NCBI GenBank assembly: GCA_951406725.2
Contig: OX597826.1
Location: 6,510,001-6,574,000 of the forward strand
Source: Octopus vulgaris
Lineage: Eukaryota
DNA length: 64,000 bases
Direction: 5' to 3'
Part shown: one piece after another, positions 1-62,707 of the stretch
Layout of the letters: every line of letters begins with the position of its first letter
How positions within the stretch are numbered: the first letter of the stretch is position 1
Position numbers and translations under genes: made by a program
Notes under the pieces: generated by a model
Seen by the model: the letters and a program-made list of their open reading frames with translations, nothing else
Databases searched by the model: none
What the model was told of the DNA's origin: nothing

Positions 1-446
<446 letters not shown>

Positions 447-903
447 GTCTATCTATCTATATGTCTATCCATCTATGTATTTATCTATCTGACTATCTAT
501 CTAACTATTTATCTACCTATCTGTCTGTTTGTTTGTCTGCTTGTCTATCTGTATATTATATCTATCTAATTCTCTGCCTATCTATGTATCTGTACACACA
601 CACACACACACATACACATACACGCACACATATATACATATATGTATGCACACACGTATATGTACATATATGTGTGTGCATAGTTTTATGCATATATGTT
701 TGTGTTTGTATATATACGCATAAGAATATTGAGAAGGATATGTGGATAAGCGAGGCAGTCTGAGGGACGGTGAAACATACTTGGGAAAGAGGAGTTTTAA
801 AAATTAATGAAAATTAATAGGATTATCAATATCATACATATATGCCTCTGTATATAAAGTGTTTCTACGTGTGGGTAAATGTATGTATATATTCATGTAT
901 ATG

Positions 904-960
<57 letters not shown>

Positions 961-1099
961 ATGTATGTATGCGTGTAGGCATAGTCCAGTGTGTGATAGA
1001 GGGATGAGTGTGGGAATGCTGTAAGCTAAGATCGAATGGATAAAAACATAGCGTTTTAAATTAAAATTTTTCTCGATTTCATATTTTGATCCCAATGCA

Positions 1100-1760
1100 A
1101 TTAAGTTAAAAGATAACAAATTACTGCATATATCCCCATTCGCAATTAACTAATGAGTATTTGTTTGGTATGTTACTTTACTCTCCATGTCTCTCTGTCC
1201 ATCTCTTCCGGATTATCCACTTACTCCCTTTAGGAGTTTAATTATGTTGTGGTCGTTCCGAAAGCTTAGGTTCCCGTTTATATTATTTAGCTGTTGTTTT
1301 TGAAAAATTTTTATTCTCTTCATTTTGAACATTTTGCTTCTTTTTTTATTGTGGGTAGGGGCCTTACAAACGTTTTACATTGTTTTGCCATAATATCCGA
1401 CCCTTTTTCTTGATTTATGCTAAGGAGGATTATGTTGAAAATCACATAGGAGGAATGCATTAAGAAATGCTTTAAATTGTATGATATTGGGTGCCATGAA
1501 GTCGCATTTCTAATATATGTAACAGTATGACTATTCAGCGAAATATGTTTTAATTATATATTTTAGTTTGGTAGACATCATACCAGACGAGTAGTACACT
1601 AGCATGTATATTTTAGGTCAATTATCAACAGTAACGATGGCATTTAAGTTTTTATCTATTCTCTTATATTTATTGTTTTTAATACTTCTTTTTTAAAAAA
1701 TCAGTATTACCCACATCGTCCTATTTAGAAAGAATTCTCTTGCCTTCACTAGACTTAAAG
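1100..1760 (+). mobile_element. Possible decayed LINE ORF1 (gag-like, I/Nimb/Jockey-group) remnant
   Basis: Fragments KLKDNKLLHISPFAIN (cf. ORF1 'lSPFaI') at ~1103-1150 and ICFNYIF*FGRH (cf. zinc knuckle RCFnCqkFGH) at ~1543-1578. Many stops and frameshifts. Confidence 0.3.
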
Positions 1761-2029
1761 GAAATACCAGCAATGTTGTCCAAAAAATAGAGTAAAGAAA
1801 TATCTTAGACCCCGATACGCCATATATTAAGAAAAAGACAGGATAATGTAGGCTGGCTTTGCTGCGTGGATAAGAAACTCGTTCTACAGTCACGTGGTTT
1901 GATGTTCAGACACTCTGGTTACCGACTTTGACATATGCCTTCTACTATGATAACTTGCAGATAAATAATTTGTGAGTAAATTTGGTAACCCGTCCAGGAC
2001 ATAGGCATTCATGCATATATGTATAAACG

Positions 2030-2390
2030 CAATCGTGTGGAGATGTGTCAATGCTTACTTGACCACAACAACGATGAATGAGAAGCCGTATTGTACAGAA
2101 TAATGACTGTAGATGAAACCCGTATCCATTTCTTTGAGGAAGCATCCAAGAGTATTGCCAGCAACAAAGAAATTCAAAGCTCAAAATTTCACAGAAGTCA
2201 TGTTAACTGTTTTAAGGGAGGATAAAGGGTCTATGCTAGAACATTAACAGAGAAAAGGGATCTATAGTCACAAAAGTAAGGATGTAGTGAAATGCTGGCC
2301 AACAGGCTGAAAGGAACTAACGACGAGGTCTATTCTCAAATCAGGTGTAATTGTTACACAGCAATGCACACCCACTCACAGCATCACACA
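2030..2390 (+). mobile_element. Decayed Tc1/mariner transposase fragment
   Basis: Broken translation RIMTVDETRIHFFE (cf. RIVTGDETW), KKFKAQ..VMLTV, and SNAHPLTA (cf. DNARPHTA). Confidence 0.75.
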
Positions 2391-2747
2391 GCCCAAGAAA
2401 TATATAGGAAAGCAAAGAGACTATGTTCAGCCCCTGCTTTCGTTTTAATAAATCACAGAATTACACAGAAACAGAGAGAGAGAGAGAATGAGAGATATAT
2501 ACACATGTACACACACGAACACACACACACATATCTATCAATATGTGTGTATATATATATATGTATATATATATAAACTGTCCCGTTTGTTGTATTTTTA
2601 TTTTCTCTTATATTACCACTTTTTTTACCTCTCGCGTCTCATGTTTGATCTTTGACCTCTGGCCGAAATCAGATCGCCATGTTGATTCGTTAGCTACTGC
2701 ACACATTTTTTTTCTCTCCTTCTTTCTGTGTTTTTTCTCTCTGTGTA

Positions 2748-2785
2748 TCTTTCTGTTGAAGAGCGTAGGCTCGAAACGTTAAAGA
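2748..2785 (+). ncRNA. Minimal type I hammerhead ribozyme motif (variant core), copy 1
   Basis: TCTTT-CTGTTGA-A-GAGC(GTAG)GCTC-GAAA-CGTT-AAAGA. Stem I TCTTT/AAAGA, stem II GAGC/GCTC, palindromic AACGTT in place of stem III. Core has A6>U. Confidence 0.6.
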
Positions 2786-3283
2786 CTTGTTTTATTTATA
2801 TTTCCTGAGCGCCATACTAATACAATTGTTCGTTTGTTTTCCACCTGCCTTCGTCTTTTGTTTATTTTCATAAAGCTTCCCGTTATATATTATGCGCTCA
2901 CGTGGTCTCACTTTCATCCTATATTCTACCAATACCACTATCAACACTTACCTCTACCTTGGATTTTCTTTACCTCTTGGATACTTACCATTGGCTGCAC
3001 CTCTCTTTCGCGGATCAAAGTGACTTTGCATTGATGTGAAATCCTTAAAAAATATACCACGACGTCTACACATTTCTCACCTTGAACTTTCAACCTTGAA
3101 CTTGTTCGCATAAACTGTCCCGTTTGTTGTATTTTTATTTTCTCTTATATTACCACTTTTTTTACCTCTCGCGTCTCATGTTTGATCTTTGACCTCTGGC
3201 CGAAATCAGATCGCCATGTTGATTCGTTAGCTACTGCACGCATTTTTTCTCTCCTTCTTTCTGTGTTTTTCTCTCTCTGTGTA

Positions 3284-3321
3284 TCTTTCTGTTGAAGAGC
3301 GTAGGCTCGAAACGTTAAAGA
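3284..3321 (+). ncRNA. Minimal type I hammerhead ribozyme motif (variant core), copy 2
   Basis: Identical motif to 2748-2785, 536 nt downstream. Confidence 0.6.
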
Positions 3322-3585
3322 CTTGTTTTATTTATATTTCCTGAGCGCCATACTAATACAATTGTTCGTTTGTTTTCCACCTGCCTTCGTCTTTTGTTTA
3401 TTTTCATAAAGCTTCCCGTTATATATATACACGTGTGTACGTGTGATGTAAGAGAGAGAGAGTGAGTGTGTTGCTGTGTTTGTGTTTGTCCTCGTTCTTT
3501 TTGACAATTGATGATGGTGATGTCCCTGTAACATGATAATTCAATAAGTAAAACCGAATAAGAAGAAGAAGAAGAAGCCGAAGTA

Positions 3586-3587
<2 letters not shown>

Positions 3588-3648
<61 letters not shown>

Positions 3649-3670
3649 GAAGAAGAAGAAGAAGGAGAAG
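3588..3670. repeat. (AAT)n/(AAG)n microsatellite
   Basis: Directly visible. Confidence 0.97.
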
Positions 3671-4906
3671 AGGTGGATTAGATTAGTTCGATTGAATTTA
3701 CGAAGTCGGTGTCCCAGCATGGCCGTTATCCAACGAATGAAATTATGCGTTTTTCCGATAGATGTATAATGCAGTGTCTCTCAATGAACATCATGAATGG
3801 CTGTTGCGAAACATGCTATTATCTTAACATTTTCACCGACAAAATAATTGAGCTTGGCAGAGAATAGAGATGTACATTATTTTGAACTTGTGAAATAAAA
3901 TTACTCTCGATACTATAAACATCCATTTGAGAATGATCAAGAGAAATAGAATCTACCTTAGCATTATCACCAATAAAATTAATGAATTGTTTTCACTTGA
4001 CGTGGGTGAAATAATATTGATGCAGCTATGTATGTTGCAATTATGTGCTATCAGATTATAAAGGTTTCCTTAAAACAAACGTCATTTACGAGTAGATTTA
4101 ATTCATTTTATATACAAAGGTATATGTTTCAGATACAGATATTACTATACTTAGCTGTAATGTGGTACAATAGACCAGAACATTACAGCTGATGCGATGT
4201 GTTAACATGACACATCCCTAGCGTTCATTGTGTTCCTGTATATTAATCATTTCTCAACAATGGGAATGCGATATTTCCATAGTAATCAAATGGTATCATT
4301 GATATATTACTGAAAACGGGACCCTGTGAAGGATATTTTACTAAAGCAATATAACGGGAATTTTAGTAGTATTCGACATGGTAATTGAATGCATTTCAAA
4401 TACTGAGTGGTATATTCTTATTGAAAAGCGGTGGTATCATATGGAAATAATTTGATACGAAAGAAATAAAAGACAATGATTTTAAATAATTTTGTCAAAT
4501 GATTAAGACTATATAGAAAATATGCTATGAGCAAAAACATGTGAAGAATTGGCTAGTCCTCAATAAATCATGATATATGAAAATTTCATATCAATGAAAT
4601 AAATCCAATAAACTGTATTAGCAAATGACGAGGAAATTTGGAATGAGTTGCCATATTTTTTTTTGTAAAATAATTAATACTTTTTAAGAGTATATTGCGC
4701 GAAATTCCCTCCTGTTTCTACAAATGTCACCTATTGAAGTGATTACACAGGGTTATAAAAATTTAAAAACAGCACACGATTGAAAACAAACAAGGGATAT
4801 AATCGCAATGTGTAATTCGTAATATATCATGTTATTCTGACTGACAATATTTCTCATCCTCTTACTAATTTTAATAAAACATGAATTTACGTTAATAATA
4901 TTAACA

Positions 4907-5064
4907 GCGTAGGTGGTGTGGCTAGGTGGTAAGAAATTGATTCCCAACTGCATTGTTGCGAGTTCAGTCCTACCGTGTGGAATCTAGGTCAAGCGTCTTC
5001 TATGTCCTGAGGTTGACGAAAGTTGTGTGAGTAGATTTGGTACACAGAAACACAAAGAAGCCCG

Positions 5065-5119
<55 letters not shown>

Positions 5120-5370
5120 AGTGTGTGTGTGTATAGAGAGAGAGAGAAAGAGAGGTACGCATTCATGTATGTGTGCGTTTGTTTGTGTCTGTATCTGTCT
5201 CCCTCAGTCATTCGGCGACCGGTGATGGTGTGTAACATAGTGGTCCGCTTAAAGATTTCGATAGAATAAATACCAGGCTTTAAATACATAAGTACTGGGG
5301 GTGATTAATTCCACTAAGAGTTCAAGTCGGTACTCCAGCCTGGTCAAAGTCCTATGAATGAAACAGGTTA
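4907..5370 (+). mobile_element. Diverged tRNA-derived SINE, family A (internal TA/TG microsatellite)
   Basis: A/B-box-like head GTGGCTAGGTGGTAAG...GAGTTCAGTCC, then AAAGAAGCCCGTC before (TA)n. Tail GGTACTCCAGCCTGG..ATGAAAC. Matches the copy at 22304. Confidence 0.75.
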
Positions 5371-6268
5371 CAGAAAAAAAAATACGTTAAAAACAAGCGA
5401 TACTGAGAAATGTCTTACTAAAATTTGTAAAATCATAAAAGGAAATATTACACATGTCATTGAATTTCGCTTTGATTATATAGCATCGAAGTAAAGGCAA
5501 CAATAACGAAAACAGGAAACAATAGATCAAAGAAAAAAAAACATAAAACACAAGAGATGAAATTGTCGAGATTTATTCCACCCGTGTGAAAATAATAAAC
5601 CACATTTGAAGCAACAGTAGCAAATATACCGATATGTAAGTTCGCTTTAAAAATATTTTCTATCATATTAAACAAAATGACTGTCGTAGTCCGAAACAAA
5701 TGTAGGTTTTATAAACAAGAGCTATAAAAAGAATAAATGTAAATGTATATGAGACTACAGCGAGATTTATTAAATCGGTGCAGAGCTTCAGGTCCAAGAG
5801 GCTGTATCTATTGTGCTACATAAATTACTATTAAATAGATAACGATAATGAATATAAGAACCAAACACTCTATATTTAAAGTTGCTTCAATAATACTGGT
5901 TATTCAACAAATATCTACAGTAAACGAAGAAAAAAGATAAACCCCTGAAGGACATTGGCATAACGTCTGGTCCGTAATAACAATGACTATATTAGTTTAT
6001 ATTTTACAAAGCTAGTGAAATATTCCTATGTTACAGGAACAATGAAAAAACATGTCGTACAATTTGATACGTAACTAGTTTTCTGTTAGGTGTCTCATAC
6101 ATGCAGCTATTCTGTCGTATGTGAGAATTTAACATTATATATCTGGCACCAGTATAGTCAGAATATCATATATTCATGTGTGCGTGTTTCTGTGTATGGG
6201 TGTATGTTAGAGCGTGTGCTTGTGAGCTTGTGTGCGCGAGTGTATTTGTGTGTATATGTGCCATTCTG

Positions 6269-6311
<43 letters not shown>

Positions 6312-6656
6312 ATATGGAGCGGTTCCTGCTATTTCCAGCTGTCAGGTATCAAACATTGACAAGAGTAAAGAAGGGCGAAATCACGTGATCTGGTAGTCTT
6401 GGTAGCGGAAGTGGCAGTGATCTTCTGCCGCTAGCGATGTAAACAAGAAAACGCTTATACGTACCACAAAACCATATTAGAGATTTTTCTCTTGCTGAAT
6501 ATCGCAGTATCGAGTGTTCTAACGCAATCGCCATTTTTAAATTTATGGCGATAAATATAACGGTACAAATATATGATGATAAATATGTGGTACAAAAGTG
6601 AACAAAAAAAAGCGGGCACAGTTTAAGGCAAAAACAAAAAAAATGCAGAGTATAAT

Positions 6657-7046
6657 TTTTTTTTGGAAGCACTCCGTCGGTTACGACGATGAGGGTTCCG
6701 GTTCATCCGATCAACAGAACAGCCTGCTCGTGAAATTAATGTGTAAGTGGCTGAGCACTCCACAGACACGTGTACCCTTAACGTAGTTCTCGGGGATATT
6801 CAGCGTGACACGGACAGTGACAAGGCCGGCCCTTTGAAATACAGGTACAACAGAAACAGGAAGTAAGAGTGAGAGAAAGTTGTGGTAAAAGAGTACAGCA
6901 GGGATCACCATCATCCCCTGCCGGAGACTCGTGGAACTTTAGATGTTTTCGCTCAATAAACACTCACAACGCCCGGTCTGGGAATCGAAACCGCGATCCT
7001 ACGACCGCGAGTCCGCTGCCCTAACAACTGGACCATTGCGCCTCCA
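6657..7046 (-). mobile_element. tRNA-derived SINE, family B1, full length with 11-bp TSD
   Basis: Minus-strand head GTGGAGGCGCAATGGTCCAGTTGTTAGGGCAGCGGACT...GGTTTCGATTCCC and A-tail. TSD CAGAGTATAAT at 6646-6656 and 7047-7057. Near-identical to 40039-40407. Confidence 0.9.
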
Positions 7047-7484
7047 CAGAGTATAATACTGCTGTATGAGATTTACGCGAAAGAAATATATGAGATAATG
7101 TGGCTTACGTAACCAACATATACTATTTTACAGGAAGAACAGACTAGAGAAAAACATGGAGTGAGTAAATCACACGGCCAACACCTGTATGTTTATATAT
7201 AGGAGTATACACATTACTATTAATATGCATTACTCTTTTGCTGTATCATTCCGGACTTACTATCACTCGTTTCATAGTTACTGTTACTATAATTGTTTAA
7301 ATTGGAGAAGAAAAAAAGAGGAAAACATAGTATCAAATAATATCATACATAAAATACATGCGAAATTAAATGTCTTAACGTTCATACATATAACTAGATA
7401 TCTAAATTTGACGTATTGCATTATATTTACTGTCGAAAATTGAGGTATTTGGTACAACACACATATATATATATATATGTGTGA

Positions 7485-7524
<40 letters not shown>

Positions 7525-7545
7525 ATGTATGTATGTATGTATGCA

Positions 7546-7592
<47 letters not shown>

Positions 7593-7593
7593 T

Positions 7594-7730
7594 TTATTTA
7601 AAGCAGCAGAAAATTCTACAAAAAAAATTCTACAAAAATTTTCTGCTGCTTTAAATAACGCATATTACTCTACCACTAGTATTTGAGTACTCTTTTTTTC
7701 CACCTTGTTTCACGTTTATGTGTTTACGGT
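7594..7730. mobile_element. Short TA-embedded element with a 22-bp inverted repeat (probable Penelope-type inverted terminus)
   Basis: TTATTTAAAGCAGCAGAAAATT (7594-7615) is the reverse complement of 7637-7658. (TA)n on both sides. Confidence 0.5.
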
Positions 7731-8034
7731 ATATATATATATATATATATATCATGCACTACATTGGATATAATTATCGTAAGATAACGTGATATGTATT
7801 AAATGATAACTAACAGATGCAAAAAGAAACGTTTAAATACATCTGATCCTATCACTAAATCGAGAAGGGTAGCGAACCTATACGGGGTATTAAGATTTTA
7901 AATCGCTTTGGTGAGATGAGATGTCTATATCTGTAATGTGAAGTTCTTGAATTTAGCTTAGAAGTATGTATACACGCATACTTACATACATACACAGATA
8001 CACACCCATGCATATGTGTATATACATATATACA

Positions 8035-59041: not shown

Positions 59042-59245
59042 CAAAATGTGACGTCGTGTGTACCGTTGGTGATTTTTTCCTCTGTATTCCCTTCTCTGGA
59101 TCTTTCCTTCTCCCATGTTTCCGACGAAGAGCTCCGCTCGAAACGTTAAACCCTCATTTTTTCCTTCTTTCCTGAGCGTCCAATAATACCAGATTTGTTC
59201 CACGTCCTCGCGTTGTTGTGTTTTTTTGTGTTTTCTTGTTTGGAT

Positions 59246-59250
<5 letters not shown>
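59040..59250 (+). mobile_element. TA-flanked Penelope-like terminal repeat fragment
   Basis: Embedded in (TA)n on both sides. Shares the hammerhead motif and downstream TTTCCTGAGCG with the 2573-3428 element. Confidence 0.7.
59117..59151 (+). ncRNA. Minimal type I hammerhead ribozyme motif
   Basis: GTTT-CCGACGA-A-GAGC(TCC)GCTC-GAAA-CGTT-AAAC. Stem I GTTT/AAAC, core U4>C. Confidence 0.65.
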
Positions 59251-59294
<44 letters not shown>

Positions 59295-62293: not shown

Positions 62294-62707
62294 GGCGGCG
62301 AGCTGGCAGAACCGTTAGCGCGGCGGGCGAAATGCGTAGCTGTATTTCGTCTGCCGTAACGTTCTGAGTTCAAATTCCGCTGAGGTCGACTTTGCCTTTC
62401 ATCCTTTCAGGGTCGATAAATTAAGTACCAGTTACGCACTGGGGTCGATGTAATCGACTTAATACCTATGTCTGTCCTTGTTTGTCCCCTCTGTGTTTAG
62501 CCCCTTGTGGGTAATAAAGAAATAGGTATTTCGTCAGCCGTTACGTTCTGAGTTCAAATTCCGCTGAGGTCGACTTTGCCTTTCATCCTTTCGGGGTCGA
62601 TAAATTAAGTAACAGTTACGCACTGAGGTCGATGTAATCGACTTAATCCGTTTGTCTGTCCTTGTTTGTCTCCTCTGTGTGTAGCTCCTTGTGGGTAATA
62701 AAGAAAC
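62294..62707 (+). mobile_element. SINE family D with a tandem duplication of its 184-bp 3' portion
   Basis: Head GGCGGCGAGCTGGCAGAA..GAGTTCAAATTCC. The unit starting GTATTTCGTC repeats at 62342 and 62526. Confidence 0.9.

Follow-up and report, generated by a model that had tools for sequence, protein, structure and literature searches.

EN+ Penelope-like elements (PLEs) encode a reverse transcriptase (RT) with a C-terminal GIY-YIG domain, target (TA)n, and carry a 5'-truncated copy upstream of a full copy, occasionally with inverted 5' arms (PMC8557442, PMC2377424). A CX2-5CxxC linker before GIY-YIG, together with (TA)n bias, marks the Neptune and Nematis elements (PMC8557442), and the cited sections of both papers state as open how Penelope partial tandems are made and what role the hammerhead plays. 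For metazoan PLE hammerheads, the relevant passages of Cervera and De la Pena (2014, PMC4209133) give a short stem I, an unpaired base 9/10.1, a G10.1-C11.1 pair, a palindromic 15.2-16.2 and no monomeric stem III. Animal non-LTR retrozymes are head-to-tail, non-coding units of a few hundred nucleotides (Cervera and de la Pena 2020, PMC7229834), with one type I hammerhead per unit and an origin in PLE pLTRs (Li, Clavereau and Pollet 2026, bioRxiv 10.64898/2026.07.22.740005); the latter work, which ties retrozymes to pLTRs, reports cleavage in 1/9 tested dimers in the part cited. In PAc Poseidon of Anolis (Frangieh et al. 2024, PMC11167929), genomic 3' ends are fixed at an internal site some 100 nt past the hammerhead, targets are AT-rich, RT starts internally, and hammerhead cleavage is dispensable for insertion in vitro. 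In the bacterial DRT2 system, RT makes exact head-to-tail repeats from linear RNA by repeated jumps at a programmed single junction, giving a functional product (PMC12039810).

A short element in a 64,000-nt stretch of the Octopus vulgaris genome (hereafter the window) resembles each of these systems in part. Its parent shares with EN+ PLEs the RT and C-terminal GIY-YIG of the ORF, a CX4CxxC linker, (TA)n targeting, the upstream truncated copy and the occasional inverted 5' arms, whereas the element itself has no ORF and repeats a 536-nt unit. Its hammerhead motif has the metazoan PLE traits given above but differs in that A6 is U across the family, stem II is 4 bp, and the triplet is GUU in young and GUA in older copies. 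Tandem hammerhead units, 1.6 in the window and 4.6 at a second locus (L132), are those of animal non-LTR retrozymes in size, non-coding nature, hammerhead number and pLTR origin. Unlike these, the window element and its sisters, short units hereafter called minis, lack an amplified common-unit family, each locus having its own join; the window core is non-canonical, and the monomer folds poorly. PAc Poseidon is matched in the position of its fixed internal 3' ends relative to the hammerhead and in its AT-rich targets, and none of the PAc reads in the cited sections, nor any genomic 5' end of the 73 copies of the present family that pass the cut among the matches listed, lies at the cut. Unlike in PAc, the start site here is in a non-coding leader and is TA-target-like, and the repeated copying of short units proposed here is not reported in those sections. 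DRT2 offers a mechanistic analogy only. In the main texts of the open literature we found neither an A6U hammerhead family nor PLE minis with private repeated joins described.

The element occupies 2573-3419 of the window and, judged by its alignment, is a non-coding derivative of a young Penelope-like retrotransposon, an already known kind. The first-pass annotation had described two near-identical, non-coding repeats 536 nt apart with TA runs at both ends, and this description holds. The direct repeats (2573-2890 and 3110-3426 counting the shared TATATA tail; 2573-2883, 311 nt, and 3110-3419, 310 nt, without it) are 98.7% identical over 319 columns, and an offset of 536 nt holds both for the hammerhead motifs (GAAACGTT, 2773 and 3309) and for the element ends at 2883 and 3419. 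No ORF of 100 aa lies inside 2573-3419, and (TA)n is found on either side. A Pfam search of 14 ORFs in the window matched 0/14; a short frame at 2082-2250 with MTVDETRIHFFE resembles a decayed mariner-type transposase and may be one.

The repeats had also been read as ends around a spacer, and this part did not survive comparison with the parent, for which the monomer of L032 served as reference (P1-P4479, counted from the base that follows the fixed 3' end). The element reads P227-282, P4225-4479, P1-282, P4225-4479, with 1 mismatch and 3 gap columns in 848. Since the whole element aligns in this way, the supposed spacer (2884-3109) is the first 226 nt of the parent 5' leader, beginning with TATATA where copies end, and the repeats are about 1.6 turns of one unit, in which the 282-nt leader is joined to the last 255 nt of the parent without the intervening 3.94 kb. 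The features are:

2548-2572, no strand: 5' flank, a (TA)n-type microsatellite target; the element's first two letters could be flank
2573-2628, + strand: parent 5' leader P227-282, start of the partial (second-copied), 5'-truncated turn; 56/56 identical to L032
2628-2629, + strand: join 1, P282 to P4225, without microhomology; about 3.94 kb, the entire ORF among it, is absent
2629-2883, + strand: parent 3' end P4225-4479 (pLTR part), first copy; 253/255 identical to L032
2666-2685, second copy about 3203-3222, + strand: zone P4262-4281 where family copies end at 5', a putative RNA 5' end
2748-2785, + strand: minimal type I hammerhead motif, copy 1, from sequence; predicted cut after 2780
2748-2752 with 2781-2785, + strand: stem I of copy 1, UCUUU/AAAGA
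2753-2759, + strand: core of copy 1, CUGUUGA, with U6 at 2756 and the extra A at 2760
2761-2772, + strand: stem II of copy 1, GAGC-GUAG-GCUC
2773-2777 and 2778-2780, + strand: GAAAC and the GUU triplet of copy 1
2884-3165, + strand: parent 5' leader P1-282; 282/282 identical to L032
3165-3166, + strand: join 2, identical to join 1
3166-3419, + strand: parent 3' end P4225-4479, second copy; 254/255 identical to L032
3284-3321, + strand: hammerhead motif copy 2, identical to copy 1; predicted cut after 3316
3419, + strand: the family's fixed 3' end, presumed start of reverse transcription
3420-3429, no strand: 3' flank, (TA)n

The genome searched spans 2.8 Gb and is microsatellite-rich. Among the best 40 of 1,912 candidates from a DNA search with the element, which were scored, most top matches carry the unit once, permuted and running on into a long element, and in 10/10 loci examined at 8 kb a 5'-truncated copy is followed by a full monomer of about 4.48 kb. 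The Penelope origin proposed earlier stands, the element being made of the leader and 3' end of this 4.48-kb Penelope-like parent. In 3/3 proteins, the parent ORF matched RVT_1 above the cut-off (E 1.4e-7) and GIY-YIG below it (E 0.007, with a YIGQTG motif); an ORF of >800 aa with RT and GIY-YIG motifs was kept in 27/69 loci of at least 6 kb, a set that includes some minis and duplicates. Partial-tandem pLTR organization with 5' truncation was seen in most of 93 loci among the matches listed, and genome-wide patterns gave 144 tandem-continuation places against 5,664 3' ends. With its single ORF joining RT to a C-terminal GIY-YIG and its partial-tandem pLTR, the parent classes by these features as an EN+ PLE, and the linker before GIY-YIG (CSRPRCRTC, of the form CX4CxxC) places it with the Neptune/Nematis type, a clade assignment made from that motif alone. 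Head-to-tail arrays of two to three full 4.47-kb monomers occur at L126 with L039 (G000:C6:117390700-117405400) and at L146, and are possible sources of multimeric transcripts. Young copies at or in the 3' end of older subfamily copies produce doubled 3' ends at L057 (1098-1509), L205 and L191.

Genome-wide, the exact 282/4225 join occurs twice, both times in the window. A pattern for pLTR-to-leader continuation was found at 144 places, of which the 100 listed were examined and come from 93 different loci (for the first 30 places the view reached 1.5 kb downstream); minis made up 13/93 loci among these matches. L068 and L090 are one mini insertion duplicated with its flanks. One copy is on contig C1 and the other on C2, both bordered on either side by some 900 nt of nearly identical sequence, and the pair is, to judge from these flanks, a segmental or element-borne duplication. 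Independent minis total at least 17, comprising the 13 loci (L068/L090 as one insertion), the window and four from targeted patterns. Among the matches listed, their units measure 289-575 nt, donors lie at P245-310 in 16/17, and acceptors lie at P4200-4320 in 17/17 and at P4279-4282 in 6/17. About six of the 17 joins were read by eye; those of L003, L057, L063, L068, L090, L286, L287 and L293 were taken by eye from the sequence.

Six minis among the matches listed repeat their own join in place 2-5 times (twice in the window, L002, L068/L090, L071 and L079; five times in L132), with the caveat that a full turn is easier for short units, which are therefore overrepresented among tandem copies. 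The joins of L071 and L068/L090 are confined to their own locus or its duplicate. Only one join among the matches listed, 293/4281, is common to unrelated loci (L132 and L286), where it lacks microhomology and sits on different subfamily alleles; hence it formed twice. A 184-nt SINE-like repeat, present as two head-to-tail copies at window 62342-62706, also occurs after the mini of L002.

Parental sequence upstream of the acceptor was found in 0/17 minis vs 72/78 long copies among the matches listed (Fisher p 4e-14). The 72 are those of the 78 long copies that extend beyond P4200; duplicates, L040, L104 and L120 were excluded from the count, and 72/78 derives from 76/82 minus four loci picked by similarity to the window. 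Neither post-insertion deletion nor a source-type locus is thus seen among the minis, and since either should keep upstream sequence, the join probably arose at the level of RNA or RT and was then copied anew in that same event. A sequence of DNA events after insertion, namely internal deletion of a full-length copy, local tandem duplication and upstream loss, would be in keeping with the internal deletions that disable many Penelope copies (PMC3846280, in the part cited) and with a few larger-unit deletions in this family (L110, L138, L146). It is very improbable: beyond the lack of upstream sequence, the 99-100% identity between the window copy and the parent allows only a short time for three events, and uniform breakpoints would leave 600 nt or less in 1.8%, against the 13/93 loci that are minis. 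No unit between 0.6 and 3.4 kb was seen in the 93 loci among the matches listed, the first 30 being viewed to 1.5 kb. Splicing was rejected as the origin of the join, the missing part having no GT start or AG end on either strand.

The 3'-end pattern has 5,664 occurrences. Measurements cover 91 of the 100 places listed, which all lie on C1; the final 8 and one upstream copy were set aside. Among these listed matches, 89/91 copies have a TA-type 3' flank, and the 5' ends of 33/91, including 14 at P4269, fall within P4262-4281, roughly 100 nt before the cut. In long elements, the upstream partial copies stop inside this zone in 0/73 cases vs 33/58 (p 2e-15, among the matches listed, counted after the same removal of four window-similar loci). 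RT stalling at a hairpin was rejected as the cause of the pile-up, the local fold z being 0.06. Because upstream copies never stop there, P4262-4281 is better read as an RNA 5' end, presumably a transcription start, than as a stall. Eight acceptors (P4201-4252) lie upstream of this main zone and call for at least a second RNA 5' end, a point against the reading preferred below. In L104 (1124-1658) and L120 (121-1661), both of which have an inverted arm, the copy extends to leader P152 and stops there in (TA)n; P152 is possibly a second RT start site, like the PLE 'tail'. At the main 3'-end site, a predicted 10-bp helix pairing window 2806-2816 with 2892-2901 brackets the fixed end and needs the leader downstream. 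The helix is present in the best fold but not significant by shuffling (z -0.8), and could mark the internal RT start.

Our preferred reading, to which we give a probability of roughly 0.6, is that a short pLTR-leader RNA had its ends joined and was copied about 1.6 times round from an internal TA site into nicked (TA)n. A parent locus would have given a short RNA over the pLTR/leader boundary, beginning close to the RNA 5' end (P4200-4320) and reaching about 250-310 nt past the RT start, whose two ends were then joined, either as a ligated circle or by a precise end-to-end RT jump. The parent protein would have nicked (TA)n and started inside the RNA at CCCGU/UAUAUA, with RT passing over the join two times and then halting. 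A 5'-end zone upstream of the cut, with no ends at the cut itself, would fit RT that initiates internally, close to where an uncut transcript begins. Among the matches listed, 5' ends lie within 6 nt of their own join in 1/9 single-join minis; as they are not gathered there, a covalent circle is somewhat favored. The insertion probably arose once only and would be starting material for a retrozyme, not part of a retrozyme family. Insertions this young commonly vary between individuals, so a source locus could be missing from this assembly, which weighs against the reading.

In L132 (G000:C8:18600400-18602500), a 492-nt mini is arrayed in 4.6 units that carry the same join five times and five hammerhead motifs, with an inverted arm at the 5' end. 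As a candidate source of circles it ranks first, yet no descendants sharing its alleles were found. At P4458, the allele of its 3'-most unit differs from that of the other four, which a single template leaves unexplained and which counts against our preferred reading. Back-joints from P268 and P293 in contigs of four sequencing runs were ruled out as circle evidence, the same joins existing as DNA; contigs aligned to the pLTR-leader stretch carry neither ends nor strand, and the back-joints came from a guessed-RNA run and a large run of unclear kind.

Alternatively, a small DNA circle of pLTR plus leader could have been excised from the parent locus and transcribed round and round, the multimeric RNA then being reverse transcribed. 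Such a circle would account for private joins, their exact repetition and the lack of a barrier at the join; the putative start zone is kept in most units (acceptor at or before P4282 in 14/17, among the matches listed), and PLE promoters are internal in the cited part of PMC2377424. We nevertheless regard it as improbable, because the joins, mostly without microhomology, recur at the same letters (acceptor P4281; donors P268, P282 and P293), a pattern that would suit defined RNA ends better than DNA breaks.

Each repeat carries stem I (UCUUU/AAAGA), the core CUGUUGA, an unpaired A, stem II (GAGC-GUAG-GCUC), GAAACGU and U17, and the first-pass reading of a hammerhead-like fold is upheld as a minimal type I architecture: stems I and II, the 9/10.1 bulge, G10.1-C11.1, a palindromic 15.2-16.2 and a NUH triplet are all present. 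The 27-nt motif occurs 6,181 times genome-wide and 0 times read backwards, hence it is not due to chance. In place of the A6 of the PLE core CUGANGA stands U6, and the question raised earlier of whether A6>U is the family consensus is answered by the 6,181 occurrences of CTGTTGAAGAGCGTAGGCTCGAAACGT against 235 with another letter at position 6. Among the first 100 listed of these 235, 78 have C, 12 A and 10 G, a pattern of decay and not of selection for A6; the three A6 loci seen belong to an older subfamily. The extra A after A9, previously called atypical, is a normal trait, since a base between 9 and 10.1 is listed for PLE minimal hammerheads in the relevant part of PMC4209133. The triplet had been left as GUU or UUA, of which GUU stands. 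With stem I unchanged, the young subfamily has U and older ones have A at position 17, which fixes the GUH register, and the UUA register is ruled out by the GUA subfamilies. As for the AACGTT palindrome, only its ACGU part is common to all subfamilies.

An Rfam scan of window 1-8000 returned no hammerhead among 86 matches at E up to 10, the motif folded alone was not significant (z -1.6), and no covariation was seen within the young family. In the few sequences compared, loop II varies (GUAG, UCC, CAA) with stem II kept, and a stem I C-G becomes G-C in a sister family. A solo 3' end of this sister Penelope family lies at window 59113-59260 and ends in (TA)n. Its motif, one copy at 59113-59154, has core CCGACGA (A6 kept, U4C), loop II UCC and stem I GUUU/AAAC; with its different loop II and swapped stem I pair, it indicates that the architecture is real across families.

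The doubt voiced in the first-pass annotation about hammerhead activity was well placed. U6 is predicted to let UGUU pair with AACG, masking core and palindrome, with a pairing probability of about 0.6 with U6 in the whole element, about 0 with A6 and <0.02 in a shorter stretch. The predicted active dimer fold lies 13 kcal/mol above the best dimer fold (10 with A6), energies that ignore tertiary contacts and proteins, and the 536-nt monomer, folded as linear, is less folded than shuffles (z +1.43; 93/100 shuffles fold as well). The join lies 152 nt upstream of the window's predicted cut site and each mini has its own join, so the unit is probably not defined by ribozyme cutting. Genomic 5' ends within 5 nt of the cut were found in 0/73 copies passing it (among the matches listed; 95% upper bound 4%), a result compatible with cleavage if the cleaved RNA is always re-ligated, which would leave no such ends. 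From its position, the hammerhead is likely carried uncut in mid-unit as a weak or silenced ribozyme that does not define the unit, and the loop-forming step in the window was likely not its work, although release of a 536-nt monomer by putative ribozyme cleavage is possible. The earlier proposal of a self-propagating retrozyme-like element releasing a 536-nt RNA finds no support in the private join, the lack of 5' ends at the cut and the differing joins of its sisters.

That proposal has a fuller form, in which a deleted two-hammerhead copy gives a dimer that is cut, perhaps with protein assistance, and the 536-nt monomer is ligated and reverse transcribed by rolling circle. It has the two intact motifs 536 nt apart, follows the model proposed for PLEs (PMC4209133) and the route shown for coral retrozymes (PMC7229834), and agrees with the derivation of animal retrozymes from PLE pLTRs (bioRxiv 2026.07.22.740005), each in the parts cited. 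Further in its favor, the 27-nt motif is unchanged between subfamilies whose surrounding sequence agrees to only about 75% (loci picked by motif), mini 5' ends are not piled at their own join, as a covalent circle predicts, and a natural A6C variant keeps low activity (PMC3088659, in the part cited). We judge it unlikely, however, as no source or sibling carrying the window's join was found genome-wide, the L071 and L068/L090 joins are likewise private, the one shared join has different subfamily alleles, and no source-type locus is found among the 17 minis (among the matches listed). The U6 core, with A6 copies no commoner than G6 (12 and 10, first 100 listed), the 0/73 at the cut (among the matches listed) and a monomer less folded than shuffles, unlike described retrozyme circles, also speak against it. 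Beyond our preferred reading of a single end-joined RNA, a broader proposal, which we hold tentatively and think doubtful, is that Penelope RT routinely copies short leader-RNA circles or end-bridged fragments, formed independently of the hammerhead, into tandem retrozyme-like units that arise de novo within one insertion event, with the U6 of the thousands-copy family locking a non-cutting core and the motif kept as structure.

By analogy, the window element may work like the birth stage of a non-LTR retrozyme, from which it departs in family amplification, core and monomer folding. Alone, the window locus is an ordinary dead-end insertion; it is as a class that these loci are informative. 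Private joins repeated exactly within a locus would mark a template copied more than once round, and 5' ends in this family, which avoid the cut, would point to an RNA end some 100 nt before the ribozyme. If true, this would lead from PLE to retrozyme by a path whose first step is not ribozyme cutting.
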